Shown: piece after piece, positions 5,080-34,569 of the stretch | Numbering within the stretch: the stretch's first letter is position 1 | Layout: each line of letters starts with the position of its first letter | Virus record (IMG/VR): IMGVR_UViG_3300031825_000041 | Span: 1-39,909 of that record | From: a virus | Strand: one strand, 5' to 3' | DNA length: 39,909 nucleotides | Translations under genes and position numbers: made by a program | The notes under the pieces: generated by a model | What the model was told of the DNA's origin: nothing | Seen by the model: the letters and a program-made list of their open reading frames with translations, nothing else | Database searches by the model: none

Positions 5080-6036
5080 TTAAGCTGAAGCGAAACGCCC
5101 CGTAATAACCCAATTAGAATTAAGTATTTTGGTTGCGTATGATCCAGCCCATGAGATAAACGACACTCGACCTGCTGGTGAATTAGAATCCACCTGATTA
5201 GCCAAGATGTAGAGTTTTGGTTGATCCTGTTGCAAGTCGTAGACTCCGAAAGCGTTATCTCCGTGAACATATGAATAGAACCTAACAACACCCGAAGATG
5301 CTGTTGAAGTTGCTTCAGTTCCAGAAGATACGTTCTTATTAAGAAGCCATCTAACTTGGTAAAGTTCTCCCATTTCTCCTGTATACAGATCTTTAATATC
5401 TGAATACGTTTTACCGTTAACCCATGTAGTATCACCGATAAGGTTGTATTTTGAGTACGGATCAGTCTTTCCGATAAACAATCCATCTTTATAGACCATC
5501 GCTTTGTTAAGCTCAAGTTGTCTAACCATCAAACGAATATCGCAAGCGTCCAATGTATCACCTGCCGTGAAGGTATCAACTAAGTGGTTATTACCGTAGT
5601 AACTGGTTCCGTTTTGAAGTTCAGACCTTACAAGCTGATCAAGCGTTTCTCCCATGTTCTGACCTACGAGTTCAACCTTTTCCTTCATACCGGAATCAAT
5701 TGAAACCAAAGTCAAGAGTTTTCCATGAGTGGTTGTTAAACCATACTCTGAAAGTGTCATAGAGATAGTTGATGCGTTGATCGGACACGTTACAGGGTTA
5801 CTCGCTTCTCCCAAGGGAGAAGTAATAACTGTTAATGGGTTATAACGAGTGAAATTCACTGTACGACCCTGACCTGTAGCATGAGTTCTAATCTGCGCAC
5901 CTTCCTTCATGATCAATTCATATTGCGCTCGTGCTAAAAACACTTTTTCGTAATATGTTTGTACTTCCTGAGCAAGATTGCTTGTAACGCTTGTATTTGC
6001 GTCTGTACCATCTACACCACGTCCTACTGCTGCCAT
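5080..6036 (-). CDS. Major capsid protein (HK97 fold, N4-gp56/P22-like family)
   Basis: 318 aa, directly after the scaffold gene. N-terminal pattern EVQTYYEKVFLARAQYELIMKEGAQIRTHATGQGRTVNFTRYNPL is typical of this capsid family. Confidence 0.8.
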   Translation of the reverse strand: MAAVGRGVDGTDANTSVTSNLAQEVQTYYEKVFLARAQYELIMKEGAQIRTHATGQGRTVNFTRYNPLTVITSPLGEASNPVTCPINASTISMTLSEYGLTTTHGKLLTLVSIDSGMKEKVELVGQNMGETLDQLVRSELQNGTSYYGNNHLVDTFTAGDTLDACDIRLMVRQLELNKAMVYKDGLFIGKTDPYSKYNLIGDTTWVNGKTYSDIKDLYTGEMGELYQVRWLLNKNVSSGTEATSTASSGVVRFYSYVHGDNAFGVYDLQQDQPKLYILANQVDSNSPAGRVSFISWAGSYATKILNSNWVITGRFASA

Positions 6037-7494: not shown

Positions 7495-9309
7495 CTAAGC
7501 TCCTATTACTGGCTGTTGTTCTGATTGTTGACCCATCTGTTGCATTTGGTTAGGCATAGGCGGTGTCTGATTGACATTCCCTGTCATCTGCATAAGAGCT
7601 TGTTGAAATTGATTATTTGTTGCGGCAAGCGTGTTATCTGCTTTTTCTCCATCAGTCATTTCAACTAAGATCTTGTCCCAATCCTGAATACCCCCGCCTG
7701 AAATAAGACGCTTAAAGAGCTCACCAAACTTAAACTCATACCCATCGGCTTTTAACTGCTCAACTAAAAGATTTCCCTGTGGGGTTTGTGATTTTTGATA
7801 AAGGTCAAGAAGTGTCGCGAGGTTTTGCTGCTGTTGGTTTTGATCTGCCGCATAAGTTGAGCCTGAAACTATTTCATAGTCATAAAGTGTTGAGCCTGTT
7901 TGTTTTTTATCAATCGTTAACTTTCCTGTTTTGTCATCATACATTTGTTTAATCTCCGGATAACTTCTTTCAAGAGTTTTAATTTCTTCATCAAAAAGAC
8001 GCATGGTAATTGCTGAAGATTGTTTCTTTGAGATAAGATTTGCAAACTTCTTCATTACTGAAGATAAGAATTGCTCCATGTAAAATCTATCTGCGTTATC
8101 TCTAGTATTTTCCCGTTGTGCCTGAAGCTTAATTGCATCTGGAGTCTTACCAAGTCCTGGATCTGTTTGAGAGGTAACTGTTGTATCAGTAGTTCCAAAC
8201 ATATTGAGAATTGCAGCTGTTCCTACTTGATAAACATTGTTAAAGGTTGAAATCCCTTGTGGGGTTAATTGAAGTGGCATTGCCGCATTTCCTATCTGAT
8301 TACGAACCAGCCACTTAGCAGCAGCGTTCATTTGGATAGAGCTCATTGAAGCGATATTGTCTTTATTGATCAGTACAGGCGGGAAGATAGACATCTTCAC
8401 CGCATCTAAATAAAGATTCCATGCTGAGTTAATTGTCATCTGCATAGTTTTACCTCTCTCAAAATCTCCCATACCCATGAAGTCGTCTAAAAGAGGGATC
8501 GAATATTTACATTTCACCGGAAGATCATCGTCATCGTGTGGGTTCTTCTGATCTCTAAATTCCATATCCGCATCAACGGCATAATCGACCCATCTGTCAC
8601 GTTCAAACTGTGTTAGAACTTCATAATATCCTGTCCCTTTAGCAGGATCTTGTTGTGGATATTGATTTTGGTCTCTTTGAGAAGTTGCTTGCGGATCTCG
8701 TGCCTGTTTTGAGCCTGTTTTTTGTTTTAATTTCTCAATAATTAAAGGTACGTTTTTAAACCCATTCTGCTTTTTAAGCCCCTCAAAATATGATAAGGGT
8801 TTCCATGTACGGATAATTACGTAATCTGAGTCATCAAGTGATACTGCACCGACTTGAGGAAAGACATCGCGGATATTAAGTAGCCACATATCGGGCCCTA
8901 CATAGCCATTGTTGCGTACATTCCAGTCAATAAGTGTAAAAAAGTTGCCATAGATATTTGAATAAAGATCTACCATCCGGCACTTAGTTAAGAAATCAAA
9001 CTGTGAATTAGCATTAGGAATGACATACTTATCAAGAATGAGGTTCATTAGCATTGAACAACCAATGTCATTTTTAGAAATAGGTTTGACTTTTCCTGTT
9101 TGGAGCTGTGCCATAACCCTATAAGAGCGTTCTAGAGTAAGTGTTGAAAGTTTAGGATCAAAGACTTGAGATTTTGTTTTAGCGGAAATGTTATCGTTTG
9201 TCTGATTATGGAAGAGTTGTTCAGAGGCATCCCACCCCAAGCGTTTTTGCTTGAGATAATCCTCTGCTGATTGTTTTCTTGTTTTAACTTGATCGGTAAG
9301 TGCGCTCAT
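7495..9309 (-). CDS. Portal protein
   Basis: 604 aa, first large gene after terL and upstream of scaffold and capsid. Q-rich C-terminal tail. The call rests on position and size. Confidence 0.75.
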   Translation of the reverse strand: MSALTDQVKTRKQSAEDYLKQKRLGWDASEQLFHNQTNDNISAKTKSQVFDPKLSTLTLERSYRVMAQLQTGKVKPISKNDIGCSMLMNLILDKYVIPNANSQFDFLTKCRMVDLYSNIYGNFFTLIDWNVRNNGYVGPDMWLLNIRDVFPQVGAVSLDDSDYVIIRTWKPLSYFEGLKKQNGFKNVPLIIEKLKQKTGSKQARDPQATSQRDQNQYPQQDPAKGTGYYEVLTQFERDRWVDYAVDADMEFRDQKNPHDDDDLPVKCKYSIPLLDDFMGMGDFERGKTMQMTINSAWNLYLDAVKMSIFPPVLINKDNIASMSSIQMNAAAKWLVRNQIGNAAMPLQLTPQGISTFNNVYQVGTAAILNMFGTTDTTVTSQTDPGLGKTPDAIKLQAQRENTRDNADRFYMEQFLSSVMKKFANLISKKQSSAITMRLFDEEIKTLERSYPEIKQMYDDKTGKLTIDKKQTGSTLYDYEIVSGSTYAADQNQQQQNLATLLDLYQKSQTPQGNLLVEQLKADGYEFKFGELFKRLISGGGIQDWDKILVEMTDGEKADNTLAATNNQFQQALMQMTGNVNQTPPMPNQMQQMGQQSEQQPVIGA

Positions 9310-9349
9310 AGGATAAGTCCTGTATTTCCTATCCTAAAAGCCCTAAATA
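9310..9349 (-). promoter_or_regulatory. Conserved leader (shared with 28725-28765) ending at the portal ATG
   Basis: 41 of 51 positions are identical in an ungapped hand alignment with the leader of gene 28056-28724. Hairpin AGGATA/TATCCT here versus AGGTTA/TAACCT there (a compensatory change). Confidence 0.6.
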
Positions 9350-9380
9350 CCAAAAAAGCACCACGCCTATTGGCTGGTGC
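9350..9380 (-). terminator. Intrinsic terminator (cassette a)
   Basis: Minus strand GCACCAGCC-AATA-GGCGTGGTGC followed by TTTTTTGG. Same bulged-G architecture as 2209-2240. Confidence 0.75.
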
Positions 9381-9413
9381 CGTAATCCGCATTAGATCGG
9401 TATTAGCAAACTC

Positions 9414-9442
9414 TTTATACCACTGCTATTCCTCTTTGTCAA
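9414..9442 (-). promoter_or_regulatory. Sigma70-type promoter TTGACA-17-TATAAA (cassette a)
   Basis: Minus strand TTGACA (9442-9437, inside the last codons of 9426-9626), 17-bp spacer, TATAAA (9419-9414), then TTTGCTAATACCG. Confidence 0.6.
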
Positions 9443-9626
9443 GTTTTGTTTCTAATTGGTACTTTCTCCGTCTATTCTTTACGATATTAAGAGTTTCAAT
9501 AATAGCTACTCCATCCTTAATCTCTACGTTAATAGTTATTTGTCCAAAAGGCGTCAATCTAACCTCATTTTCTACAATCATGTGAAGTATAGGGTTCTTC
9601 TTGAGCAGTTGATTTAATTCATCCAT
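9426..9626 (-). CDS. Hypothetical protein, 66 aa
   Basis: ORF track; overlapping chain of small ORFs after terL. Confidence 0.6.
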   Translation of the reverse strand: MDELNQLLKKNPILHMIVENEVRLTPFGQITINVEIKDGVAIIETLNIVKNRRRKYQLETKLDKEE

Positions 9627-9834
9627 GTTTGATTATAACTTCTTGAATTTCTATCGTTTTTAACTTTAAATAATCTGCTGCTGTTTTGTACTCCATGACT
9701 ACCGTGTCAGCGATATTACCGTTATTAACTCTTAAAACTACAGTAAAAAGTCCATTCTTTTTTAACTCAATCTCTTTCTCTATATCCACATGAGCCTGCT
9801 TGTTGTGTTGACGTATATTAAGTTGATAGTTCAT
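9619..9834 (-). CDS. Hypothetical protein, 71 aa
   Basis: ORF track; overlaps both neighbours. Confidence 0.6.
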   Translation of the reverse strand: MNYQLNIRQHNKQAHVDIEKEIELKKNGLFTVVLRVNNGNIADTVVMEYKTAADYLKLKTIEIQEVIIKHG

Positions 9835-10022
9835 TTATTATGATTTTCTATATGATCGTTTGGATCTTCTGTCTTTTTAATTTCAGACCTAGATTTTTTA
9901 CACCAAGCACAAAGGATTTTATCGTCTGAAGGTATTTCTTTGCTAAAACCAGCAGGATAAGAAATCCAAGCATAACTTGCCCTATAAGCAATTCCCTCTT
10001 CTCCTTTGTATTCTGTCATCAA
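9831..10022 (-). CDS. Hypothetical protein, 63 aa
   Basis: ORF track; start overlaps the terL stop. Confidence 0.6.
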   Translation of the reverse strand: MMTEYKGEEGIAYRASYAWISYPAGFSKEIPSDDKILCAWCKKSRSEIKKTEDPNDHIENHNK

Positions 10023-11311
10023 TAAAACCCTCCTTGAAACTTATTCGTATCATCTGGTAGATCGTCTTCATCATTTCTATCTGGTCGCATACTGTCAAAG
10101 GCGTAACGCACCGCATCCATACAATGATCCCAACCCTCAGCAGGAATGTTTAAAGGATTGCCTGTATCTTTATCAATCTTCCAAGCATAGTTCTCGTACT
10201 CTTTAATTAAGTTCGCGCTTCGCTTTGTAACACTGATTTTCTTGTCTTGAACATACTGTATGCCTTGACTAACACTACCTTGACCTTTCTGTGAGGGTAA
10301 GATGTTTACACCGTAGAGCCGTATCTCATCTATTGATTTAGGCTCTGCTGAATCTGCTATTACTAATGTTTGCGGTATCGAGAGAGCGAGAATAACATCA
10401 CTAAGTTGCTTATTAGACATTTCTTTCTTCCATAATTGTTCATCAAGAATATAGCCTCCGTTGTAGTAATAAATATCAACAATGGCCGAAGGATCATTAC
10501 TGTAGCCAAAATCAAGACCACGCCTCTCAAGTCTAGCTTCATGAGGAATTGAATCTATAAATACCCAGTTATTGTAGATCTTACCCACCACAGTCTCAGG
10601 AACTAAGCCTTTAACCATGTTCCAATAATGAGTAGGTTTTGTATTTCTATAGCTCTCGTATAGTGTTACGCTTGCAGGAGCAGTATTGATTATGTTGTCT
10701 GTGTAGTCCGATTTAATAAGAACCGTATCTTGTGTACCATCTTTTAATTCAAAATCATAGAATCCTTCCTGCTCGCTGGGTAAAAGCTTCATCCATCGTT
10801 TAATGATCCAATGGTTCTTTGCCGGAGGGTTGAGAAGTAAAATAATCTTAATATCTCCTTTAACTGTACGCAAAGAGTCATCTAATTGCATGAAATCATC
10901 CTCAGTAACCTCATCAGCTTCTTCAATAATCACACAATTGTAACTTGCTAATGATTTTAACTTTGCTTTCTGCTCTCCCGATGATTTCTTAAACCCTACT
11001 GCATTAATAGAATTAGCTCCATATTCAATCTTCATCAAACTATCATTGACATCAAGTTGATCTAGAACTTCATTCTCTTCTGCTCGGTCTGTAATCTCAC
11101 GATATATTGAGTTTCGTATGTCTCCTAAGATATAACGCATAATTGCACACCTGAAGTATTCAGCGGCCATGAGTCTTGCATTAGCATATTGTGAAGCTAC
11201 GGTTGACCTACCACCGCCACGACCACCCATCAATATGACGTATCTAGCTTTATTATCAAATAGAGGTTTATAAACCTCATTAACTTTCTGATTCATCTTT
11301 GAAATTAACAA
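10019..11311 (-). CDS. terL: Terminase large subunit
   Basis: Walker A-like MGGRGGGRST, Walker B-like VIIEEADE, and C-terminal nuclease motif GWDHCMDAVRYA; 430 aa. Confidence 0.9.
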   Translation of the reverse strand: MLISKMNQKVNEVYKPLFDNKARYVILMGGRGGGRSTVASQYANARLMAAEYFRCAIMRYILGDIRNSIYREITDRAEENEVLDQLDVNDSLMKIEYGANSINAVGFKKSSGEQKAKLKSLASYNCVIIEEADEVTEDDFMQLDDSLRTVKGDIKIILLLNPPAKNHWIIKRWMKLLPSEQEGFYDFELKDGTQDTVLIKSDYTDNIINTAPASVTLYESYRNTKPTHYWNMVKGLVPETVVGKIYNNWVFIDSIPHEARLERRGLDFGYSNDPSAIVDIYYYNGGYILDEQLWKKEMSNKQLSDVILALSIPQTLVIADSAEPKSIDEIRLYGVNILPSQKGQGSVSQGIQYVQDKKISVTKRSANLIKEYENYAWKIDKDTGNPLNIPAEGWDHCMDAVRYAFDSMRPDRNDEDDLPDDTNKFQGGFY

Positions 11312-11663
11312 AGGTTATTATGTTCCCTTTGTCTCCACCTACATTAACTTGTTGCATGAATTGAGGCTTCTCTCTATATCCCTCGTGGTTATTTTTAAGC
11401 CAAAAGATTAACTCTGCTGTTGAGCCGCTAGCTGCTTTATTGATTAACACACCCTCCATATCATCACAAAGAACTAGCTTAGCCTCTTTGATTGCAGTAC
11501 GAAACTGCTCATCTGCTTCAAGCCAATTGTAATAGGTTTGTCGGTTAATACCAACGGCTTGACAAGTCAAGCTAATGTTACCTCTTACCTCATCACTTGA
11601 ATAAAATTCAACGAACTTAGTTTTTTTTATATTGTCGAATTTGTCTATCTGTTTCTCTAGCAT
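11280..11663 (-). CDS. terS: Terminase small subunit (HTH type)
   Basis: 127 aa directly upstream of and overlapping terL. Contains an HTH segment ISLTCQAVGINRQTYYNWLE. Confidence 0.7.
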   Translation of the reverse strand: MLEKQIDKFDNIKKTKFVEFYSSDEVRGNISLTCQAVGINRQTYYNWLEADEQFRTAIKEAKLVLCDDMEGVLINKAASGSTAELIFWLKNNHEGYREKPQFMQQVNVGGDKGNIITFVNFKDESES

Positions 11664-11820: not shown

Positions 11821-11839
11821 ATCCCGATTTGATCGGGAC
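11821..11839. promoter_or_regulatory. Palindrome TCCCGAT-nnn-ATCGGGA (copy 1 of 2)
   Basis: atcccgatttgatcgggac; the same 7+7 palindrome recurs at 17557-17573. Confidence 0.5.
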
Positions 11840-15992: not shown

Positions 15993-16073
15993 TCATCCTC
16001 TCCCTTGTCCTAATAAATAAATTACATATAAAGTTGCTACTACTCCCCAGATAAAAGAAATAAAATTATTCAT
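15993..16073 (-). CDS. Small hydrophobic peptide, 26 aa (not in ORF track)
   Basis: ATGA overlap with the stop of 16070-16462; translation MNNFISFIWGVVATLYVIYLLGQGRG. Confidence 0.4.
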   Translation of the reverse strand: MNNFISFIWGVVATLYVIYLLGQGRG

Positions 16074-16462
16074 AGATTTTTAATTCTCTCCTTGTAATCT
16101 GCTTCTATAGCCTCATAATCAGCAATCCTGTATTTGACTGGTATTCTTGCTTTACTAACAATCTCATCATAGGTCGCCAAACCAAGTTCATCTATCAACT
16201 TACGGGTAAAGATTTGGTATTGACCTCGACCCCAAATATTACAGCCTGCACATTGAGGTCTGACTACACGCTCCTCAAAGAGTATTGCGTTATTACGACC
16301 ACCTATGCCGTGTCCTGCATTCATATTCTTGTAATCAGTGATCTTTCCGCATGTATAACATCGAACACATTTATCAAACTCCTCAGTGTCTTTCAACCTT
16401 ACCCACAGGCTAAATGCCTTCCATGCCTTTTTTTTAGCACTACTTAATGTTATTTTTTTCAT
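16070..16462 (-). CDS. NinG/Rap-like recombination nuclease
   Basis: AWKAFSLWVRLKD ... CYTCGK ... AGHGIGGRNNAILFEERVVRPQCAGCNIWGRGQYQIF matches the lambda NinG family pattern. Confidence 0.6.
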   Translation of the reverse strand: MKKITLSSAKKKAWKAFSLWVRLKDTEEFDKCVRCYTCGKITDYKNMNAGHGIGGRNNAILFEERVVRPQCAGCNIWGRGQYQIFTRKLIDELGLATYDEIVSKARIPVKYRIADYEAIEADYKERIKNL

Positions 16463-16840: not shown

Positions 16841-17530
16841 TTATTGATTTGCTTTAAAAAACGCATTTGCAAATCCTGCTGGTGTGATTGAACGTAATTC
16901 TTTTCTTGTTCTTTTATTGCCGGGCACTTCATCAACGGGACTTTTTAATGCTTTAATTTCCGACATAAGCAATGCATCGAACTTCTTATCATTCTTCATC
17001 ACCCATTTTTCCAATTTAACCGGTTCGTTGAAATATCCCCATAGAGCTGTATTCTTCTTATAACCATCACCAAATTCATAAGGCTGAAACGTATATACCG
17101 GCTTTCCTATATGCCATTTCAACATACCAAGATTAGGGTTTTCTAATGCCCAAAACTTTAAAGGTGGTAATTTTTGGAATTGGTTATGCAGCGTCCGCTG
17201 ACAAGCGCTTATAATCTCAAAACATTTATTGACCAATGCCATACTGTTAGTTAAATCTCTGGGTCGTTTTGGACTCAATCGAACAAAACTAAACATGGTA
17301 CAGGGTGGAGCTGCGAGAATACCGTAGACATCCTTTGGATCAATCACAAGTGCGACACCAGTATCATCACCGGCTCTAAAATTTATCTTATTATCTTCAA
17401 AAGTGGTATACATAATGTCATATTCAGGAACAGTGATAACCTTCACATCATAGCCAGCCTTTTTATATGGCCTACTCCATGCTCCTGTTCCTCCGCATAA
17501 ATCTAAAATAATTTTGTTTTCGTTATTCAT
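16841..17530 (-). CDS. DNA (cytosine-5) methyltransferase, short form
   Basis: Motif I DLCGGTGAW, motif IV AAPPCTMFS, motif VI ALENP; 229 aa. Confidence 0.65.
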   Translation of the reverse strand: MNNENKIILDLCGGTGAWSRPYKKAGYDVKVITVPEYDIMYTTFEDNKINFRAGDDTGVALVIDPKDVYGILAAPPCTMFSFVRLSPKRPRDLTNSMALVNKCFEIISACQRTLHNQFQKLPPLKFWALENPNLGMLKWHIGKPVYTFQPYEFGDGYKKNTALWGYFNEPVKLEKWVMKNDKKFDALLMSEIKALKSPVDEVPGNKRTRKELRSITPAGFANAFFKANQ

Positions 17531-17543
17531 ACTTTCTCTTTCT

Positions 17544-17586
17544 GCGTGGTATTAAGTCCCGATTTAATCGGGATAAGCTGCCACGC
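17544..17586. promoter_or_regulatory. Nested hairpin containing palindrome TCCCGAT-nnn-ATCGGGA (copy 2 of 2)
   Basis: Outer stem gcgtgg/ccacgc and inner stem tcccgat-tta-atcggga (17557-17573), just upstream of the methyltransferase start. Confidence 0.5.
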
Positions 17587-17588
17587 CT

Positions 17589-17672
17589 CTATTTCAACCT
17601 CATAACTACCCAAAGTAATCCCAACAACATCGCTAGAGCTAGTAAATATAATAAATTTTGTTGGTTTAGCAT
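17589..17672 (-). CDS. Small hydrophobic peptide, 27 aa (not in ORF track)
   Basis: Manual translation: MLNQQNLLYLLALAMLLGLLWVVMRLK. Confidence 0.35.
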   Translation of the reverse strand: MLNQQNLLYLLALAMLLGLLWVVMRLK

Positions 17673-17673
17673 A

Positions 17674-17826
17674 TTATGTTTTCTTTTTTAATAACTTCTC
17701 TTTTGCTATTTTTAAGCTCCGCGCTTGTAAAACTATCGTCTCCTGTCTGCTTCTCTTAGTTGCCGGATCGGCATACTCTTTTCTTAATTTATCTAACCTG
17801 TCGTCTATTTCCTGTATTGTAAGCAT
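17674..17826 (-). CDS. Small helical ORF, 50 aa (not in ORF track)
   Basis: Manual translation: MLTIQEIDDRLDKLRKEYADPATKRSRQETIVLQARSLKIAKEKLLKKKT. No SD; TAATAT lies 9 nt upstream of the ATG. Confidence 0.4.
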   Translation of the reverse strand: MLTIQEIDDRLDKLRKEYADPATKRSRQETIVLQARSLKIAKEKLLKKKT

Positions 17827-17859
17827 ATTTGTAAATATTATCGTCTATATGTCTATATA

Positions 17860-18158
17860 AAACTATATCACTGTTCTTGCGGCTACGCCGCCTCTACCCA
17901 TAACTTTGCTCTATTCCCTCTGCCTAGATCTTCTCTCCGGTAGGTTCCTAGTCCTCCCTCTGGTATGGTTGTTACTTAATACCAGATAAGTGTTTCTATT
18001 CACCGTCTGAGTGAGTCTGAGTAGAGAGCCGACTAGTCCATTTTTATTCGCAAACTATTACTAGAAAATGGCGGTTGCCGTATCTGCTATCCAAAGTAAT
18101 CTCTTACTTCTATCCGCCCGCCACTTTGCGAGTAACGAGCGAGTAGAAGAACGCAAAG
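17860..18158 (-). ncRNA. Candidate structured RNA or replication-origin-like region (unclassified)
   Basis: About 300 nt with stops in every frame of the strand I translated. Helices: ACTTTGCG/CGCAAAGT, AAGTAA-GAGA-TTACTT (GNRA loop), CTGGTAT/ATACCAG, GCGGC-GTA-GCCGC. Direct repeats: GTCTGAGT x2 and CAGAGGGA x2. Confidence 0.35.
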
Positions 18159-18443
18159 TTATGTCAAAGAACTAAAACCTAACTGTTCAGGCTTAACTAA
18201 TACTTGTCTACTTACCCATTCGCCACGCTCATTTTTATATGTTTTCCATGTCATCTCTTGTTTTTGTGGTTGACGGGTGGTGATAAGATAACCTTTTTCT
18301 TTAAGCTCTTTGACTCGTACTGGAAGCTGGATATATTTCATTCTCCATTGATAAGAGTTCATTCCTCTAACACCCGATCCTTTAAGGACTTGTAATATTT
18401 CTGATTGCTGTTTATTTAATTTCATATATTCCTTTCTACCCAC
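18159..18443 (-). CDS. Putative winged-helix DNA-binding protein, 94 aa
   Basis: The segment SEILQVLKGSGVRGMNSYQWRMKYIQLPVRVKELKEKGYLITT resembles a wHTH. Weak call. Confidence 0.4.
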   Translation of the reverse strand: MGRKEYMKLNKQQSEILQVLKGSGVRGMNSYQWRMKYIQLPVRVKELKEKGYLITTRQPQKQEMTWKTYKNERGEWVSRQVLVKPEQLGFSSLT

Positions 18444-21416: not shown

Positions 21417-21634
21417 TTATCTCCTTTCGCTTTTGGAAATCTGCTTCTGACGGCTTCAACTGACATACTGAGGATTTTTGATATATCTGTATAAGAATAG
21501 TCAAACTTGGTGTAGAGATGCTGAATTACAAGATTTGTAGGCTTGTTATAGTAGATTGATAATTTGCTTAGAGCCTCGTTAAACTCGAGCTGATTGCCCT
21601 TTGGTCTAGATTGTGTTATAATTTTCTTAGTCAT
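21413..21634 (-). CDS. Small HTH protein (sigma region-4/Cro/Xis-like), first gene of the leftward operon
   Basis: YSYTDISKILSMSVEAVRSRF resembles an HTH. No SD; the ATG abuts a 9-bp hairpin. Confidence 0.4.
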   Translation of the reverse strand: MTKKIITQSRPKGNQLEFNEALSKLSIYYNKPTNLVIQHLYTKFDYSYTDISKILSMSVEAVRSRFPKAKGDK

Positions 21635-21669
21635 AAAGCTGTTTTCGTTTAGAGAACAGCTTTTTTTTT
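21635..21669. terminator. 9-bp hairpin with a T9 run on the plus strand, abutting the first early gene
   Basis: aaagctgtt-ttcgtttagag-aacagcttt followed by tttttt. This is terminator-like only when read on the plus strand. Confidence 0.4.
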
Positions 21670-21748
21670 GTGAGTTAGACTAAAATTTTCGGACTAGGCC
21701 CACAACTTTAGTACGAAAGTTTTAATTGCTGTTTCTAAATCTGTCCCT

Positions 21749-21777
21749 ATGGTAGCATACTTTTTTTCTGGTGTCAA
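21749..21777 (-). promoter_or_regulatory. Candidate early leftward promoter TTGACA-17-TGcTACCAT
   Basis: Minus strand TTGACA (21777-21772), 17-bp spacer ending in TG, then TACCAT (21754-21749). Confidence 0.4.
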
Positions 21778-21863: not shown

Positions 21864-22829
21864 GTGAATGAGTTAACAAACTTCAAGTTATATATTATAA
21901 GATCGGGGAGAAAAAAGCGAACGGCAGAACTGCACGTTTCACTGTTATCCCGCCTCTTTAAAGCGTCAAAAAATCTAAATCTAGACCAGATTAATAATTT
22001 TCTTCTAAGCCTAATTGAGTCGGGGAGGAAGGCAACTTACGTCAATGATTACATCGACACACTAAGAGTTTACGGCAGGTTTATCAAAGATGACAGGTTC
22101 AATTCGTTAGAATATTTTAAAGAAGATATTTTTATCCAGGCGACCATGTCTGATGCGGAGATTGAGGCTTTTCTCTCCCTGCCCCCGCCGACTAACGGTG
22201 AGAGAGTAAAGAATAATTACGCAGTTTGGACATTATTTTTTAAAATCTTAGCTTATTCGGGAATGCGGCCAGGAGAAGTCGCCCACCTAGCAATCGACAG
22301 AGTAGATTTCGGCCGCCAGGTCTTTGTTTTAGAAGATACGAAGACTAACACCCCCCGCTACGTTCCCATCGCTCCTGCGCTTCTTAGTGACCTCACAGAT
22401 CATATTAAAACCCTAACTGGCGATAAGCTATTTCCCTCTACCAGAGGGGGAAAGTTTAGGCAAAACGGAGTAGTTAATGATGTAGACTGGGGATATAACT
22501 TCCACTCAAGAATTAAACGATTGGGGATTAAAAGAAAAAACCTCCGCCCCTACTCTCTAAGGCCTTCATTTATTACTAGAATGTTAGACGAGGATGTGAA
22601 TATTTTTAAAGTTCAGAAGATTGTCGGCCATAGACAAATCTCAACCACTGCCCACTATACCCACCTAACGACTAAAGATATAACCAGAGCTATAAATAAA
22701 GACCCTTTATCAAGAGCAAGCCTGCCCTATTACGAGAGGTTAAAATTATTCCGGGAAGGGACACGTAAATTACTTGAGGATTTAGCGCAATCCCCCGAAG
22801 AAGAAAAAGAAATGCTTAATAGTCTTTAA
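21864..22829 (+). CDS. int: Tyrosine recombinase / phage integrase
   Basis: SGMRPGEV (Arg), LRPYSLRPSF (box II-like xxLR) and VGHRQISTTAHYTH (His ... Tyr nucleophile); 321 aa, GTG start. Confidence 0.85.
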   Translation: MNELTNFKLYIIRSGRKKRTAELHVSLLSRLFKASKNLNLDQINNFLLSLIESGRKATYVNDYIDTLRVYGRFIKDDRFNSLEYFKEDIFIQATMSDAEIEAFLSLPPPTNGERVKNNYAVWTLFFKILAYSGMRPGEVAHLAIDRVDFGRQVFVLEDTKTNTPRYVPIAPALLSDLTDHIKTLTGDKLFPSTRGGKFRQNGVVNDVDWGYNFHSRIKRLGIKRKNLRPYSLRPSFITRMLDEDVNIFKVQKIVGHRQISTTAHYTHLTTKDITRAINKDPLSRASLPYYERLKLFREGTRKLLEDLAQSPEEEKEMLNSL

Positions 22830-23219: not shown

Positions 23220-23334
23220 CTAAATCACCTCCTAGTTCTATCTCTAAATACCCATAACTCCCCTCAACTCTTGAGGAGATGACAGTATAGTTAGAGAAAT
23301 AATCTTTAGTAAACTCAGGTAGATAAAAACTCAT
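23203..23334 (-). CDS. Possible small ORF, 43 aa (not in ORF track)
   Basis: ATGA overlap with the endolysin stop; translation MSFYLPEFTKDYFSNYTVISSRVEGSYGYLEIELGGDLDDVLR. May instead be non-coding. Confidence 0.3.
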   Translation of the reverse strand: MSFYLPEFTKDYFSNYTVISSRVEGSYGYLEIELGGDLDDVLR

Positions 23335-24173
23335 ATGTGTAAAATATTTTTGATTGTGTCAATAATTTTCTGCAAATTACTTTTAACGATTGGACTTCTG
23401 GTTTTTTTAATCGCGGCGTCTGCTAAACCTTCAATAATCGGCTGGACATTCTTCACCACTTCCTCGTGGGGCTTCTGAAGGGCGGCAATCGCCTTTAGGG
23501 CGTCTTCTACGTTAGCAACGTGTAATTGGTCAAAGAGACTTTGTCTGTCTTTCTCGGCCTTTATGCCACTGTCTATAGCGGTGGAGTCTTCTTCAAACTT
23601 TTTCTTATAATTTTCAAGTAACGTAGCGTCTGCCAGATTTACTTGGGAAAGCTGGGTTTTAAGTCCTTGATTTTCACCCATTAAGTTTGTATTTCTCTTT
23701 AATTCTTCTTGATAAAGGTTCCAATTATCGTCTCTGGCTTTACGAAGCTCATCGACAACCCCTTGGTTTTCTAAAGGCAAACTTTTAGGGTGAAACCAGC
23801 CTAAAACTGATCTGTAACTGTAGTGTTTAATGTGGCAGTTCGACCCTAAAGGATCGTTTTGTTCTAGAGCATCAAACCCATTAACATCCGTATTCTCTCC
23901 GGTTGCTATTCCTACGTGACCTGCCCCCCCATTATATGAGCCTGCCCAAATAACAATATCACCCTTTAAAGGAAAGTTGTCTTTTGCATTAACTATTTGG
24001 TCGTAAAAGATACCTGCCTGATCGAAGATTTGATAGGCATTATCTCCTGTAAATCTTTGTCCCCCAATCCATCTAGAATAACCATTGGCAAGATCAAAGC
24101 ACTGATCCCCGTAGGCTCCGTCATAGTCACAGTAGATACCATTAAAAAATGTTATAAACTCTTGTACTGTCAT
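23331..24173 (-). CDS. Endolysin with N-terminal CHAP domain
   Basis: Catalytic Cys context YGDQCFDLANGY and His context GAGHVGIATG; coiled-coil C-terminal half. Confidence 0.8.
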   Translation of the reverse strand: MTVQEFITFFNGIYCDYDGAYGDQCFDLANGYSRWIGGQRFTGDNAYQIFDQAGIFYDQIVNAKDNFPLKGDIVIWAGSYNGGAGHVGIATGENTDVNGFDALEQNDPLGSNCHIKHYSYRSVLGWFHPKSLPLENQGVVDELRKARDDNWNLYQEELKRNTNLMGENQGLKTQLSQVNLADATLLENYKKKFEEDSTAIDSGIKAEKDRQSLFDQLHVANVEDALKAIAALQKPHEEVVKNVQPIIEGLADAAIKKTRSPIVKSNLQKIIDTIKNILHI

Positions 24174-28059: not shown

Positions 28060-28724
28060 ATTCCAAATCCGGCATCTAAACCGTTATCTGTTTGATTTTG
28101 TGCCGGCATTTCATTTCTTGTTTTCATGGCTTCAAGTTTTTGAGTTGCTAATTGAAGTGATTGTGCGTTACCCTCTTCTTTTGTGAGTTCTGAAAGAGCA
28201 TAATAAACGGCAAACATCGGATCAGACATTTCAAAGGTATCTGAACCGGTTGACACACTTGAGGCATATTTGTAGTAGTTATAGTTAATTGTTTGGCCTG
28301 AAGTAATTGTTAGGTTAGGATTAAATTCTAAAGTGGGTGACCCATCAAGTAAGAAATAACACCAATTCCCCTTATCATTTTCATATAACTGTACATCTTC
28401 CTGTCTGATAACTCTATATGGGGTTTTATTAGTTCCTGTACCTAACCAGACATATCCAGAGCTAGGGAACCTAAAAAGCGTTGGGACAGTATATGAGGTA
28501 GCTGTAGTAGTAGTCTTATCTCCGTCTGAAGCATCAGCAAGCTTAACATAGAGCTCTTTCCAGAGCATACCTTCTTCATTTTCCCAGATATTGATTGCAG
28601 TATTAAGCAGGTCAGTCCAGACTGTATAATCTTCATCTCCGCTTGTGGGAGCTGTAGAGTCAAGCTCAAGGAGTGTGTTGAGCTTTGTTATTGCATTAGT
28701 TAATGTGGAAACGATTTTTGCCAT
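28056..28724 (-). CDS. Tail structural protein, 222 aa (adaptor/tail-tubular-A-like or Dit-like)
   Basis: Called from position and coupling with the 669-aa gene. Family not verified. Confidence 0.45.
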   Translation of the reverse strand: MAKIVSTLTNAITKLNTLLELDSTAPTSGDEDYTVWTDLLNTAINIWENEEGMLWKELYVKLADASDGDKTTTTATSYTVPTLFRFPSSGYVWLGTGTNKTPYRVIRQEDVQLYENDKGNWCYFLLDGSPTLEFNPNLTITSGQTINYNYYKYASSVSTGSDTFEMSDPMFAVYYALSELTKEEGNAQSLQLATQKLEAMKTRNEMPAQNQTDNGLDAGFGI

Positions 28725-28765
28725 AGGTTAAGTAATAAATTTCCTAACCTATAGACCCTAAATAC
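28725..28765 (-). promoter_or_regulatory. Conserved leader (shared with 9310-9349)
   Basis: GTATTTAGGGTCTATAGGTTAGGAAATTTATTACTTAACCTATG; see 9310-9349. Confidence 0.6.
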
Positions 28766-28795
28766 AAAAAAAGCGCACTCCCCTAAAGGATGCGC
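28766..28795 (-). terminator. Intrinsic terminator (cassette b)
   Basis: Minus strand GCGCATCC-TTTAG-GGGAGTGCGC followed by TTTTTTTG. Confidence 0.7.
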
Positions 28796-28831
28796 CTCAT
28801 TCAAAAACAAAGTTGAATATTGACTGCCCTG

Positions 28832-28861
28832 ATATTACGCCAATTGAACACTGTTTGTCAA
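28832..28861 (-). promoter_or_regulatory. Sigma70-type promoter TTGACA-18-TAATAT (cassette b)
   Basis: TTGACA (28861-28856) lies inside the last codons of the 1320-aa gene. TAATAT (28837-28832) contains its TAA stop. Confidence 0.5.
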
Positions 28862-31800
28862 GCCTTTTATTTTGGATGGCTTCATAATTTTATAACTAAT
28901 CTTTGCAGAAGGCATTGTAAGCTTGATTTTACTCATCTTTGGCTTTGTGATAACTTTAGCATTTGATAATTTAATTGTCGGTGATTTCCTTTTAGTGAAT
29001 TTGGTAAGTGTGACTTTTGCGGGTTTTACTTTGGTAATTCTTATCTTGCCTTTCTTCCCTGTTCCCGTACCTGTTTTTACCAACGAATTTCCTTTTGCGT
29101 CTGTTTTGATTTTCTTTAAGGCTGTTGCTTCTTGTTTTGAAATTAATCCCTGATCAACAAGATTATCTAATACACCGTTACTTGCAAATTGATCGCCTGC
29201 TGAACTGACGACCCTTCCTGTTATTAACTGTTTCAAAAGTTCATCATGACTCATGGATTGGACTTTAGAGGCAATGTACTGTGTTTTGACATTCTCTGAA
29301 TGATTAGCCTTGTATGCATACTCAAGCTGTGATGAGTCAACTCCTAGTTGTTTGTATGCTGCGTCTTTTTGATCTTGTGGAAGATTGGTTTTGTATATAC
29401 TTAATGCTTTATTAATTTGCCAGTTTTGGTTTGTATAAGCATCAATACCTGATCCAGTAGTCGGAGGATTAAGATCAATTGTTTTTACTGAACCATTATC
29501 ATTGTAGATGATTTTATTTCCCACATTTTGAACGAGTCCCGTTAATTGTGCTTTTTGTTTGGCAATACTTTCCTCCGCTTTTGCCTGTAATTGGGATTTA
29601 ACATCTGGTTTTTTTTCTGCCGCCGCTGCTTGCTCTAATCCTGTAAAATCTGGGTTTTTACCTTGTAAGATCATTTTCTTTGCAGCATCGATATTTTTAT
29701 TTAAAAGACTTTTCTGTTGCAACATATCATAATTTTCTTTTTGTAATGGCCTTTCACTTGTAGTTCTAAAGGGTGATAAAGCATTTTGAGCTTGATTTTG
29801 ATTAGGGATAGGCTCACCTGCTTTATCAGTTCTTGCTGGAACAGTCATTGAAAGTCCAGGTATTTGAGTAAATAACTGCTGTACTTGTTGTTCTAAAAAT
29901 CCAGCATCAGTATTAACTTTCCTTTGATAGGGATCAATAAGTCTCGCCATCCAACCTAAGAGAGCTCTATATGGAATAAGTTGTTGAGGATAATTTGAGA
30001 CAAATCTTGCCATTGCTTCGGGACTTCCCTTAGCTGCTGATACTAAATCTCCAATATTTTTAACATATGATTGATCGGCAAAGAAATTTCCATACTTAGC
30101 AGCGACATTTAAGATAACATTTAATTGATTTTGATTAATTGTTTTATTTTGCTCTGCATCATGTAGGGCTGAGATAAAAGCTATTGGGAAGCCAATTGCC
30201 GGAGGAAGCTTTGCATAAGATACCCAATTATTACCTATTTTAATAGCATAAGGTTGCATCCCCGCTGCTCGGAAAGCTGCTTTTTTCGTTGGATCAGTAG
30301 GCTCTGCCCATGTGGTTCTACCACTTGCTACAAGTATAGCTGTCGCTGCTGCTGCACTAGAGCCTAAAATAGCTTTTGATAATTGTTCTATTTTATTTGG
30401 CGCACCTTTAAGAGTTAGAAAACCAGCTGGAGAATATTCGACACCTTGTTTTAGAATATTCATAGGCGTTTGAACAAATGGTAAAGTAAATTTAGCAATC
30501 GTACTTGTAATAGGATTTGAGCTATTTCTAGCTTTTTGAATAAGTCCAGTAAAATCATCTATAGAATTAAGAAGTGTCCCCTGACGCTTTGTATGTAACT
30601 CGCTTCTAAAAAGTCTATACTTAGCATTATCTAATGCTTGAACCTCAGGAGTTGGTACATTTACTCCTTTACTCTTTCGATAATTTAATGCTGCCATTTC
30701 TCCACCCTGAGTAAGCTTTGTAAAGAATTGATCTGATGCCTCAAGAAGTCGTGTCGGAAGATTAAGATTACTTACTTTTTTACTTGTGCTGAGTGGTATT
30801 TGTCTGACATCTAAATTACCTGTGACTATTTTCCCTCGTAGTGAATTGGCAAATTGATGTGCAGCATCATGCAAGCTTCCCCAGTACCCTTTAGCGTATT
30901 GTGCTCCTTCAGCTGCAAATTGTGTTTGTGGTTTACCTGTCAATTTTGATCCTAAGAAGTCAAGTGTACCTGTTAAAGTTTTCTCAATAGGTGCGACAAA
31001 TCCGCTATTAAGAAGGTTTGATGTAGCATTAATAATATGGGTATTTGGAGACGAGAGCATTGAATTATAACGGATCAAATCTATCTTTTCCGCTAATGTA
31101 GGTTTAATGAATTTTCTATAAAAATCAGTCGCTTGTTTAAGATCATTAAAATCAACACCTTTTGCTGCCTTCGTTACTTTGTCAGCGTCTTTTTCTACTT
31201 TAAGTACCGCATCTAAAATTGCATCTCGTGAGGTGATGAGATTTGGATCAGCACCGATACTAAATGACTGCAACTTACGGGCTATATCTGCTCCATGAGA
31301 TTTAATAGCTAAAAGATTATCAATATACGCTTTATCTACTTTTCCTGATTGTGCGGCAGCCGCTAATTGTTGACGAGTTCTAAGAAGCCTTGCTGTAAAA
31401 TCTTGAGTTTGTGATCTATCAACAACACTATTTAATATTTTGGCTGAGTTATTAGCTGTTTGGATAACTTCCTGATTAGAGAGTTTTTTACCTACCACTT
31501 GTTCTATCTGTGGCTTAACTTCCTGAATAACTTGATTTACCTGTTGTTTAGCCTGTGGTGAGACATTCAATTTATTGGTATTAAAGTAGGGGTTTTCAGA
31601 ATTGGGTATTTTTGTTATACTACCACCTGATGAGCCCCCCGACAAAGAAGAAGGATTTTTGGGATTATTTAATCCAATTTCTGGTGTTTGCAGCGTTTGT
31701 GTGGATAATTCTCCATTATGTACCGGGAGGGGGGTGCTCGTACCCATACGATTGTTAACCTTATTTCCCCGTACGTTCTCAGTTGAAAGCCCCAAACTAA

Positions 31801-32797
31801 ATCTATTCTTTGTCTTTCCAATAGCCTGAAGTGTTGCATCAAAAGCATTTGCTAATTGTTTGTTAGTTAAATCCTTAGCTTTTTGTCCAAAGACATCCGT
31901 TGCAATTGCCTGTATTTCCTGCCCTAACTGACCGTAGTTTTTCTTACCTCCTGTTTTTTGAACATCAATTACAAAATCCATAATTTTTTGAATTGTTGGT
32001 TGGTCTGCTACTTTTGTAAGATAACTAGCTGCCTTAGCATAAGCAGGTTTTGCAAAACCAAAATTAACAGCACCAGTCATAGCTCCACCTGTTCTATCGA
32101 GATATGCTTGCGTTGTTTCGTTTTGTTTTGGTGGCCCATATGATTCTATAAGAGATTTTTTTATTTGATCTGGTATTTCTTGAACCTTTCCATTTAAAAA
32201 GCTACTAAATGGTGAGTTTTGTCCTAATTTCTGAGCTACCTGTAAATTAGTGGGGCTTTTAATTAAAGACGTATTAATAAAAGGAGCATTACCGATTGTT
32301 TTACCCACCTTATTCACTCCATTAACTATTGGTCGAACAAACTGCTGATTCCAGTTATAAGATTGACCACGCATAGCTTGATCTGTTTGACCTAAAAGAT
32401 TATTTATTAAAGGATTCGGTCTTCCTGCTTTATAATTTGCAACTCGTACTGCTCCTGTTATGGGTTCTGTTAATGGCTCAATATATGGATTCATCAATAC
32501 AGGATAGGTAAGGTCTTGGAGTCCCTCAAATGGCCCACGTTTCTTAACATCTTGAATAACTTTCCCAGCCCATTGAATAGGATTATTACCATTGTTGTTA
32601 AAGAATGGTTGTTGCTGATTCGCTCTAACTTGGTTTGCATAATTAGTTGCAGCTTGTTTTACTTGAGGACTTGTTAATGTTTGATGAATAAAATTAGCTT
32701 GCTGAACAATAGGCGCTCGTTGTACATCTTGTTTGACTGCCTGAACACCCTGATTAAACAGGTCTTTCAGTTTGTTTTGAAGATCGAGAAGCGTCAT
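28835..32797 (-). CDS. Very large virion protein, 1320 aa (internal/ejection protein or tape-measure-like)
   Basis: Largest ORF, in the tail block, with a Lys-rich repetitive C-terminus. No catalytic motif recognised. Confidence 0.55.
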   Translation of the reverse strand: MTLLDLQNKLKDLFNQGVQAVKQDVQRAPIVQQANFIHQTLTSPQVKQAATNYANQVRANQQQPFFNNNGNNPIQWAGKVIQDVKKRGPFEGLQDLTYPVLMNPYIEPLTEPITGAVRVANYKAGRPNPLINNLLGQTDQAMRGQSYNWNQQFVRPIVNGVNKVGKTIGNAPFINTSLIKSPTNLQVAQKLGQNSPFSSFLNGKVQEIPDQIKKSLIESYGPPKQNETTQAYLDRTGGAMTGAVNFGFAKPAYAKAASYLTKVADQPTIQKIMDFVIDVQKTGGKKNYGQLGQEIQAIATDVFGQKAKDLTNKQLANAFDATLQAIGKTKNRFSLGLSTENVRGNKVNNRMGTSTPLPVHNGELSTQTLQTPEIGLNNPKNPSSLSGGSSGGSITKIPNSENPYFNTNKLNVSPQAKQQVNQVIQEVKPQIEQVVGKKLSNQEVIQTANNSAKILNSVVDRSQTQDFTARLLRTRQQLAAAAQSGKVDKAYIDNLLAIKSHGADIARKLQSFSIGADPNLITSRDAILDAVLKVEKDADKVTKAAKGVDFNDLKQATDFYRKFIKPTLAEKIDLIRYNSMLSSPNTHIINATSNLLNSGFVAPIEKTLTGTLDFLGSKLTGKPQTQFAAEGAQYAKGYWGSLHDAAHQFANSLRGKIVTGNLDVRQIPLSTSKKVSNLNLPTRLLEASDQFFTKLTQGGEMAALNYRKSKGVNVPTPEVQALDNAKYRLFRSELHTKRQGTLLNSIDDFTGLIQKARNSSNPITSTIAKFTLPFVQTPMNILKQGVEYSPAGFLTLKGAPNKIEQLSKAILGSSAAAATAILVASGRTTWAEPTDPTKKAAFRAAGMQPYAIKIGNNWVSYAKLPPAIGFPIAFISALHDAEQNKTINQNQLNVILNVAAKYGNFFADQSYVKNIGDLVSAAKGSPEAMARFVSNYPQQLIPYRALLGWMARLIDPYQRKVNTDAGFLEQQVQQLFTQIPGLSMTVPARTDKAGEPIPNQNQAQNALSPFRTTSERPLQKENYDMLQQKSLLNKNIDAAKKMILQGKNPDFTGLEQAAAAEKKPDVKSQLQAKAEESIAKQKAQLTGLVQNVGNKIIYNDNGSVKTIDLNPPTTGSGIDAYTNQNWQINKALSIYKTNLPQDQKDAAYKQLGVDSSQLEYAYKANHSENVKTQYIASKVQSMSHDELLKQLITGRVVSSAGDQFASNGVLDNLVDQGLISKQEATALKKIKTDAKGNSLVKTGTGTGKKGKIRITKVKPAKVTLTKFTKRKSPTIKLSNAKVITKPKMSKIKLTMPSAKISYKIMKPSKIKGLTNSVQLA

Positions 32798-33862: not shown

Positions 33863-34348
33863 GTGAATAAACTTATAGGCTTTATTGGCCTAATCGTTTT
33901 TATCTCTTTAAGTTATTTCTTTGTTAATTTAAGTCTTCCGCCAAAGGCTGTTAGTGTTGTGCCGACACCTACTCCAAAAGAAAATAGATACGATCCATTA
34001 CCTAAACCTCTCTCTGCTGAAAAACTTACGGCACTCGTCAATAAATGGCGAGTCTCGCAAGGCTTTCAACCGTACGTAAAAAATGAAGATTTATGTCAAA
34101 TTGCTATTGATAGATCAGATGAAGGAGCCGATAACCATAAAGGATTTTTAGAAAAATACTCTAATTTCCCCTCAGTAATCCAAGAAAATTTAGTGCAAGC
34201 TAGTAACGAATATTCTGCTTTATCCTCATGGTTAAATTCAAAACCACATCTCGCAACACTTGAAAAACCATATAAATATTCCTGTATAGCTTGTTATAAA
34301 AACCAATGTAATCAGATTTTTTCCAATCTCGAAAACGGAACACGATAA
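33863..34348 (+). CDS. Secreted CAP/SCP (YkwD-like) domain protein
   Basis: N-terminal signal or TM segment LIGFIGLIVFISLSYFF. CAP-like blocks LVNKWRVSQGFQPY, ENLVQASNEYSALSSWLNSKPHLATLEKPYKYSCIA. Confidence 0.6.
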   Translation: MNKLIGFIGLIVFISLSYFFVNLSLPPKAVSVVPTPTPKENRYDPLPKPLSAEKLTALVNKWRVSQGFQPYVKNEDLCQIAIDRSDEGADNHKGFLEKYSNFPSVIQENLVQASNEYSALSSWLNSKPHLATLEKPYKYSCIACYKNQCNQIFSNLENGTR

Positions 34349-34360: not shown

Positions 34361-34411
34361 CTAGCACATTCCTGTGCCACCGCATTTAGGACATTTCTTT
34401 TTCTTAGCCAT
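34361..34411 (-). CDS. Tiny ORF, 16 aa, with a CxxCxGxG motif (not in ORF track)
   Basis: AAAGGAGAAATAT precedes the ATG; translation MAKKKKCPKCGGTGMC. Confidence 0.3.
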   Translation of the reverse strand: MAKKKKCPKCGGTGMC

Positions 34412-34438
34412 ATATTTCTCCTTTCATTTTTTTCACAC

Positions 34439-34498
34439 AAAAAAAGCCGTCCTTAGAACGACTTTCTAGAACCTAGAAAATTATTCTAAAAACGGCTT
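34439..34498 (-). terminator. Long imperfect hairpin terminator (cassette d)
   Basis: Minus strand AAGCCGT ... TTAGAA ... TTCTAA ... ACGGCTT followed by TTTTTTGTG. Confidence 0.65.
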
Positions 34499-34540
34499 AC
34501 CTGACAACCTCGTGTTGGCTCAGCCAAATAGATTAACTCA

Positions 34541-34569
34541 CTTGTATCACTTTTTTTCTTATTTGTCAA
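34541..34569 (-). promoter_or_regulatory. Candidate promoter TTGACA-17-TGaTACAAG (cassette d)
   Basis: TTGACA (34569-34564) overlaps the last codons of the HNH gene. The -10 is weaker (TACAAG) but is preceded by TG. Confidence 0.35.

Follow-up and report, generated by a model that had tools for sequence, protein, structure and literature searches.

The 39,909-nucleotide stretch analysed here (the window; positions 1 to 39,909 of IMG/VR virus record IMGVR_UViG_3300031825_000041) contains four copies of a phage cassette in which a promoter fires into an intrinsic terminator in front of a gene block, an order that the first-pass annotation had compared with lambda PR'-tR' and that we find kept in more than 50 diverged relatives. 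Between promoter and terminator, the leader of about 57 nt carries a short hairpin, hereafter P1, which is strongly supported by compensatory changes in the aligned sequences. We tentatively propose from these sequence patterns that each cassette is a conditional terminator gate, the leader RNA of which would serve as the recognition element for a hypothetical factor. While the logic of promoter-proximal terminator control is known, the covariation-supported RNA motif, which is absent from Rfam, is new. The first-pass annotation had captured the order of the elements, but neither the covarying P1 as conserved core, nor the conservation across the family, nor the status of the window as a complete genome.

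All cassettes are read on the minus strand, which is the coding strand. Cassette a precedes the 604-amino-acid portal gene (7495–9309, minus strand), and every element previously described for it is present. Its −35 hexamer TTGACA (9437–9442) lies within the last codons of an open reading frame (ORF) of 66 amino acids and is followed by an extended −10 element TG-g-TATAAA (9414–9422; TG 9422–9421, TATAAA 9419–9414, spacer 17 nt). The 5' box TTTGCTAATACCG (9398–9410), with a predicted RNA start near 9407, leads into P1 (CCG / loop AUCUAAUG / CGG, 9387–9400), which is supported by covariation among the relatives. The linker AUUACG (9381–9386) then connects P1 to the intrinsic terminator (9352–9380), which consists of a 10-bp bulged GC stem (9380–9358) with the loop AAUA and a run of six T (9357–9352) and has a folding energy of −14.6 kcal/mol. 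A 42-nt leader (9309–9351) with the Shine-Dalgarno (SD)-like sequence UAGGG and a 9-bp hairpin (9336–9309) ends in the portal ATG (9309). The longer bulged hairpin initially drawn at this place (CCG-ATC-TAAT GCGG ATTA-CGG) gives way to a simpler structure, since the relatives keep a plain stem of 3–6 bp, corresponding to CCG/CGG in cassette a.

The three further copies were found where they had been placed (2193–2301, 28725–28861 and 34412–34569). Cassette b (2210–2301) precedes the epimerase/transketolase block and comprises the −35 element (2301–2296), which holds the TGA stop of the upstream ORF, the −10 element TATAAA (2278–2273), the box (2269–2257), P1 (2259–2246) and a terminator (2239–2217) with seven T (2216–2210). 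Cassette c (28766–28861), in front of the tail block, has its −35 element at 28861–28856, the −10 element TAATAT at 28837–28832, the box GTCAATA at 28824–28818, P1 (UUCAA/UUGAA) at 28817–28800 and a terminator at 28795–28773 with seven T at 28772–28766; its leader (28722–28765) contains GTATTTAGGG and an 11-bp hairpin ending in the ATG of a 222-amino-acid ORF. Cassette d (34439–34569) is a longer variant with a predicted RNA of about 98 nt, preceding a 16-codon Cys-rich ORF and then the internal-virion-protein block. It is built from a −35 element (34569–34564), TG-a-TACAAG (34549–34541), a candidate P1 (UUGGC/GCCAA, 34527–34515) and a long compound terminator (34498–34446) with seven T (34445–34439). 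In all four cassettes the −35 element overlaps the 3' end of the upstream gene, either within its final codons or at its stop codon.

Measured from TTGACA through the last T of the T-run, the four cassettes span 91, 92, 96 and 131 nt, and the predicted terminated RNAs of 57, 58, 62 and 98 nt each fold as a small hairpin plus terminator. A scan for stable hairpins with six or more T behind them recovered only the four cassette terminators as strong terminators on the coding strand. The window contains exactly four copies of the 8-mer TTGACAAA, one per cassette and none on the plus strand; with 3.6 occurrences expected this count is ordinary, and it is the placement that is unusual. The 8-mer stands 85–125 nt upstream of each of the four terminators, where about 0.003 would be expected per terminator, and from its density we calculate a chance of about 1e-10 for all four pairings, so that the coupling of promoter and terminator is far beyond chance. 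The 13-nt box is found exactly in cassettes a and b only (0.10 expected). A consensus promoter scan had omitted these two cassettes because their −10 element lacks the last T.

For comparison we collected 80 IMG/VR loci with portal proteins 53–71% identical to that of the window, which contributed 59 distinct cassettes. The promoter-hairpin-terminator unit is present upstream of the portal gene in almost all 80 loci. TTGACA is exact in 56 of the 59 cassettes and a TAnnnT −10 element follows at 16–18 nt in 44, while the distance from the −35 element to the last T of the T-run is 93 nt in the median (interquartile range 90–97). The T-runs are 6–8 nt long, the median terminator energy is −11.5 kcal/mol, and the start codon comes right after the T-run in many cases (ATG in 32/59, GTG in 7/59). 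Since the −35 element is embedded in the end of the preceding gene and, in most relatives, the U-tract directly adjoins the start codon, no separate promoter is left for the downstream block, which can be expressed only by read-through of the terminator. In the longer loci, TTGAC lies 60–150 nt upstream of 35 of the 45 coding-strand terminators, and some of the remaining ones have an extended −10 element (TGTGATATAAT) in its place. Second cassettes occur 8–11 kb downstream of the portal cassette or before tail genes. The cassette is a family trait, and a terminator without a preceding promoter essentially never occurs.

P1 is a hairpin of 3–6 bp between promoter and terminator, the pairing of which is kept among the relatives while its sequence varies, with stems such as CCGC/GCGG, GUGC/GCAC, ACGC/GCGU, CUGC/GCAG, CCAAA/UUUGG, GCAC/GUGC, ACAA/UUGU, GCAA/UUGC and ACGA/UCGU. 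RNAalifold applied to an unbiased MAFFT alignment predicted exactly this hairpin, with double changes in all four pairs. In the first alignment the P1 positions were paired in 79.7% of cells as against 54.5% after shuffling, with a covariation of 0.688 versus 0.244 and none of 500 shuffles reaching the observed value; in the second alignment the corresponding values were 89.5% versus 60.5% and 0.773 versus 0.227, again with 0/500, and slid controls stayed at or below 0.24. Directly 5' of P1 lies the box, which reads GYYRAUR (GCUAAUA in the window) or belongs to a second class, UUAGUUAGUC. The P1 loop varies by subgroup (UNURAU, CUAA, AUAUG, AGAU or CAUACGUA), and a linker of 0–8 nt joins P1 to the terminator, giving a conserved RNA core of about 25–30 nt with one short stem. 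Minimum-energy structures show P1 and the terminator as adjacent folds without a competitor in this region; this speaks for a bound factor rather than for a riboswitch-type alternative fold.

A covariance model, R1, was built from box, P1 and linker without promoter or terminator. Across 0.9 Mb of family DNA its matches are almost confined to cassette positions on the coding strand; in the window it finds cassettes a (25.8 bits) and b (24.5 bits) but misses c and d, so the motif definition is still narrow. Searched against Rfam 15, the element matched no family at gathering score, and other matches were at chance level (E ≥ 0.3). Three genomes with paired cassettes are instructive with regard to specificity, since their box, loop and linker are near-identical between the two copies, while changes in one arm of the stem are compensated in the other and the terminators show no relationship. 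Written as box/stem/loop/stem/linker, the two cassettes of L097 read CAUG/CUGC/AUAUG/GCAG/CUCUA and UAUG/CGGC/AUAUG/GCCG/CUCGA, those of L046/L123 read CAAUG/CUCC/AUAUG/GGAG/UUCGG and CAAUG/CUGC/AUAUU/GCAG/UUCGG, and those of L144 read GUCUU/ACGA/CAUACGUA/UCGU/GG and GUCUU/GAUC/CAUUUGUA/GAUC/GG. Between genomes, box, loop and linker differ. This combination, shared within and differing between genomes, suggests that the unpaired parts are recognised by their sequence, with perhaps two recognition specificities among the cassettes.

Several other candidate features of the leader were examined and either rejected or found to be weak. Class-I cassettes (for example window 9391–9403, L005, L014, L026 and L037) have the fixed register AUR-N6-URA, in which AUG or AUA just 5' of P1 is followed by two triplets and then by UAA or UGA in the loop, and which can also be read as a direct repeat YYRAU-N6-YURAU with an 11-nt period. 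A leader mini-ORF (AUG, two codons, UAA in the loop) was discarded, since about half of the cassettes, including all window copies, have AUA, AAG or AAA as the first triplet, and no ribosome site accompanies it. A long-range helix between the 5' box and the region past the T-run reaches −13.8 kcal/mol in cassette a, but across the family cognate pairs average −5.4 kcal/mol as against −5.8 for non-cognate pairs (p = 0.87). A box-linker helix (UAAU/AUUA) or a loop-linker pseudoknot, checked by hand in about 15 cassettes, occurs only with an AUUA-like linker and is missing in L027, L049, L046 and L065, so that it is not a general feature. The P1 loop hardly qualifies as a −10-like sigma pause element, as UNURAU is variable where the essential A of a −10 element would stand, and no match to a Bacteroidetes-type promoter (TAnnTTTG) was found. 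An upstream segment complementary to the box around the −10 element, which we call the anti-box, gave a weak signal (cognate pairs beat both shuffles, with p = 0.005, and non-cognate pairs, with p = 0.045).

The regions around the terminators also show features that touch on translation. The post-terminator leaders of cassettes a (9309–9351) and c (28722–28765) both hold GTATTTAGGG and a hairpin of 9–11 bp reaching the start codon, the arms of which are compensated (AGGATA/TATCCT versus AGGTTA/TAACCT); the arrangement resembles a split ribosome site, with a hairpin that would set the SD-like UAGGG beside the AUG. Many terminators upstream of portal genes in the family (for example in L027, L049, L056 and L062), as well as window 28773–28783, have a G-rich 3' arm (GGGAGG, GGGGG) and a CUCC-like 5' arm. 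Because the 3' arm is G-rich, an SD-like sequence 8–10 nt before the ATG is paired inside the terminator, which could constitute an extra translational lock. On the 3' side of the terminator of cassette d lies the 16-codon Cys-rich ORF (MAKKKKCPKCGGTGMC, 34361–34411, minus strand) with a good ribosome site, and just after this cassette a CAP-domain ORF (33863–34348, plus strand) runs antisense within the long minus-strand transcription unit.

The mechanism that we tentatively favour would operate as follows. A sigma-70-type promoter, with TTGACA and an often extended −10 element set in the end of the upstream gene, would start the leader of about 57 nt, in which the single-stranded box GYYRAUR, P1 with its conserved loop, the linker of 0–8 nt and the strong intrinsic terminator follow in this order. 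By default, polymerases arriving from the cassette promoter or from upstream would stop at the terminator and release the short RNA of about 57 nt. When the polymerase stands at the U-tract, P1 would have just emerged from the RNA exit channel. A factor, most likely phage-encoded, would in lytic growth bind the nascent RNA at this position, by its box and P1 loop, and let the polymerase pass the terminator, so that each block (portal/head, accessory sugar genes, internal-virion, tail/lysis) might be turned on at its own gate. Every terminator has its own promoter and a P1 0–8 nt upstream, and local action at each gate accordingly fits better than a single loading event, in disagreement with the processive antitermination that had been predicted.

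As for the factor, two small ORFs of 71 and 66 amino acids between the large terminase gene and cassette a (9426–9834, minus strand) are co-conserved with the cassette in 62 and 50 of 71 loci, respectively, almost as widely as the portal gene, and they are the only cassette-co-conserved small genes without a recognised structural or packaging role. The 66-amino-acid product has an invariant basic C-terminal tail, KNRRRKY, and its stop codon falls within the −35 box in many relatives. These associations make the two products tentative candidates for the factor. The AlphaFold model of the 66-amino-acid product has a predicted local distance difference test (pLDDT) score of 67 and matches no PDB fold, and its sequence gave neither a match nor a Pfam family; nor does it show detectable similarity to the adjacent 71-amino-acid ORF.

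A number of observations weigh against the proposed gate. Family searches, by which remote homologues could be missed, recognised no Q, AlpA, N, NusG-type or other antiterminator or RNA-binding domain in any ORF, in line with the failure of the first-pass annotation to recognise an antiterminator gene, and it is for this reason that the factor is called hypothetical. For the early genes of the window, the examined stretches of the relatives contain no homologues, and no conserved early regulator is visible there. Box and loop are not common to all cassettes of one genome, as c and d are unlike a and b in the window, and both box classes occur together in L104 and L084. The last conserved T of the −10 element is missing in a and b (TATAAA) and in d (TACAAG), with the extended TG present in a and d. 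Finally, the layout of the cassette would suit a small-RNA gene, too.

Among known systems, lambda N-nut (boxA plus boxB) resembles the cassettes in having a single-stranded box and then a short hairpin on the nascent RNA between promoter and terminator, and in recognition elements that differ between related phages while being common to the sites within one phage. A short RNA hairpin kept by compensatory changes and carrying a conserved loop is likewise found in both. BoxA has a CGCUCUUA-like consensus and boxB a GNRA-like pentaloop, whereas the cassette box (GYYRAUR or UUAGUUAGUC) does not match boxA and the P1 loop is a hexaloop UNURAU or one of the others. P1 also differs in lying 0–8 nt from its own terminator, and no N-like protein was identified, the only lead to an arginine-rich protein of this kind being the co-conserved 66-amino-acid ORF with its KNRRRKY tail and a fold that matches nothing. 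The 5' leader of the dfn/mln operons, which is controlled by the NusG paralogue LoaP, combines a small hairpin essential for antitermination with an intrinsic terminator (PMC12691694) and is similar in this respect. Its hairpin, however, has a UNCG tetraloop and acts with a NusG paralogue, and one leader serves a long operon; the cassette loops are different, and no NGN/KOW domain was reported for any ORF scanned with Pfam, PHROGs and NCBIfam, although a host-encoded paralogue is still conceivable. PeSL cassettes of T4-like phages are also multi-copy intergenic units of a sigma-70-like promoter and a terminator stem-loop, but there the stem-loop lies just upstream of the promoter, in the ordinary order (PMC4122927), whereas here the promoter fires into the terminator with an additional covarying hairpin between them.

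The alternative of small-RNA genes, which we regard as unlikely though deserving attention, holds that each cassette makes an abundant Hfq-type RNA of about 57 nt (the box as 5' seed, the hairpin, the A/U-rich linker and the U-tail) acting in trans on host or phage messages, with the downstream genes depending on incidental read-through; in a variant the short RNA might possibly act on the long form, as for Gifsy-1 IsrK. This would account for an own promoter with a strong terminator of 6–8 U, for the conserved RNA length (the interquartile range given above), for a conserved single-stranded 5' end common to paralogous copies and for A/U-rich linkers such as AUUUAA. It also has a precedent in IsrK, a prophage promoter-terminator unit reported to have a functional read-through form (PMC4825925). 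IsrK and other Hfq-type RNAs or RNAs derived from 5' untranslated regions resemble the cassettes in yielding a short RNA from promoter plus terminator and a downstream messenger on read-through, as well as in their conserved single-stranded 5' segment, hairpin and long U-tail, while they differ from the four paralogous copies here that are each fixed before a gene block. A purely trans-acting RNA would not need a cassette fixed right before the portal ATG with an abutting U-tract in more than 50 genomes, a loop kept within a genome while its stem covaries fits a bound hairpin better than a seed, and complements of the box are not enriched in the phage genome (18 matches versus 13 expected at up to 3 mismatches). 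We give little credence to an RNA-centred developmental or immunity switch of a previously undescribed kind, in which every block is terminator-locked and the RNAs of about 57 nt, or a small co-conserved protein such as the 66- or 71-amino-acid product, would set termination versus read-through locally via box and P1 loop, the classes GCUAAUR and UUAGUUAGUC being two temporal classes; it would resemble P4 CI-RNA-type termination control, extended genome-wide. The first-pass annotation had left a choice between an abundant small RNA and late genes dependent on Q- or put-like antitermination. The layout does predict a short terminated RNA and a need for read-through; the Q- and put-like specifics lack support in the sequences.

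Processive antitermination of the Q/AlpA type, in which a DNA-binding protein would load onto polymerase paused after the cassette promoter and P1 would be a mere pause or timing hairpin, appears improbable to us. The order of elements is that of lambda PR'-tR' and of PalpB-tB of Pseudomonas aeruginosa AlpA (PMC9371919), where a constitutive sigma-70 promoter likewise lies closely before an intrinsic terminator and yields a short RNA by default, and the cassette promoters look constitutive, too. A NinG/Rap gene, known from the lambdoid nin region, is present, the first early ORF encodes a 73-amino-acid helix-turn-helix (HTH) protein resembling sigma region 4, and there is a weak inverted-repeat tendency around the −10 element (p = 0.005 versus shuffles). 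However, Q and AlpA depend on a −10-like pause element and on a DNA site within the promoter to which they bind (PMC9371919); neither is evident here, and no Q or AlpA family match was obtained. By eye, the four window promoters share just TTGACAAA and show no other conserved element between −35 and −10, nor did we see a positionally conserved TAnnnT in the early transcribed region, where the minimal pattern NANNNT is too degenerate to be informative. Moreover, lambda has one site per late operon as against four to five sites in the window phage, each with a covarying RNA hairpin; a processive factor would not need one loading site per terminator, and the covariation and conserved loop of P1 would be left unexplained. 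Passive insulation, with a leaky terminator ending the upstream operon, a promoter before it re-supplying transcripts and P1 serving RNA stability or processing (for example at an RNase E-type site in the AUU-rich linker), is in our view distinctly improbable. A compact genome with genes all pointing one way needs module boundaries, and AUU-type motifs occur in many linkers, but none of the more than 50 genomes has the usual and simpler terminator-then-promoter order, the energies and U-tracts of the terminators (median −11.5 kcal/mol, U6–8) suggest efficient termination, P1 begins about 8–10 nt from the predicted 5' end and is hence no protective 5'-terminal hairpin, and the conservation of box and loop within a genome is not accounted for. 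Least credible of all is a factor-independent, put-like leader that binds polymerase and passes only transcripts from the cassette promoter, whereas upstream transcripts terminate with the box masked by a complementary segment. Like putL (PMC9378689), the element lies just downstream of a promoter, where a cis RNA governs, or here is proposed to govern, terminator read-through, and some cassettes have a strong anti-box around the −10 element (L005 −8.1, L014 −7.4 and L010 −6.8 kcal/mol). HK022 put acts through the beta' zinc-binding domain and independently of phage proteins. It is, however, an RNA of about 70 nt that forms two long stem-loops and works without a protein (PMC9378689), so that the 25–30-nt cassette element with its single 3–6-bp stem is far smaller; its sequence varies between related phages, which is unexpected if the target is the host polymerase, and the anti-box is weak or absent in many cassettes.

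The window itself represents the whole genome of a temperate phage. In a 53,250-bp source contig the genes at its left end continue directly into those at its right end, and because gene order is continuous across the ends we consider the window to be one complete circular genome of about 39.9 kb. Its G+C content is about 37% and the minus strand carries nearly every ORF. Family searches assigned an integrase (21864–22829, plus strand), NinG/Rap (16070–16462), the small (11280–11663) and large terminase (10019–11311), the major head protein (5080–6036), an internal-virion-protein-like ORF of 1320 amino acids (28835–32797), for which a search for relatives found none, as well as tail fibre proteins, a CHAP endolysin (23331–24173), GroES (36267–36521) and an accessory block with an epimerase, a split transketolase, methyltransferases and a glycosyltransferase. 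The 604-amino-acid ORF had no hidden Markov model match in the window searches; its designation as portal is backed by its more than 850 homologues in public data, some of which bear the name 'Portal protein' or match PF16510/PF23899. The block behind cassette b (212–2192 and 35194–39848, minus strand) encodes accessory metabolism, including a nucleotide-sugar epimerase, GroES and an IrrE/ImmA-like peptidase, and epimerase and transketolase genes are again found near the portal gene in about 20 of 71 relatives. The phage collection contained no isolated relative matching at the DNA or protein level, the host search gave matches limited to three short metagenome-bin contigs from three different phyla, and no tRNA gene was found in the window. 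A Gram-positive host is faintly suggested by the CHAP endolysin and by strong AAGGAGG ribosome sites.

Further observations concern the non-coding parts of the genome. The early promoter region (21634–21777, minus strand) has TTGACA-17-TACCAT with a TG and leads into a leader of about 75 nt with two UAGUC motifs, the end of which (A9-hairpin-TTT) adjoins the ATG of the HTH ORF. On the plus strand (21594–21672) the same hairpin forms a T9 terminator, closely preceded by a promoter-like site, some 190 nt upstream of the integrase gene. A 630-nt stretch (17530–18159) has no ORF of at least 60 amino acids on the coding strand, several GC-rich inverted repeats and no Rfam match, with short plus-strand ORFs overlapping its right end; it is possibly an origin or a non-coding RNA. 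The palindrome CCCGAT-N3-ATCGGG occurs in two exact copies (11823–11837 and 17558–17572), both 5' of genes (the small terminase region and a DNA methyltransferase), with a chance expectation of 0.36 at up to 2 mismatches.

For the annotation of metagenomic phages, these results indicate that a promoter-then-terminator order can be conserved and functional and should not be dismissed as a mis-call. If the gate proposed here is correct, the motif absent from Rfam would provide a search image for the antiterminator and compact, portable promoter-gate parts for engineering. A large and abundant family of uncultured temperate phages, with more than 850 portal homologues in public data, would then control morphogenesis by an undescribed RNA element and its factor, using a repeated local gate before every module in place of one late promoter or one processive antiterminator.

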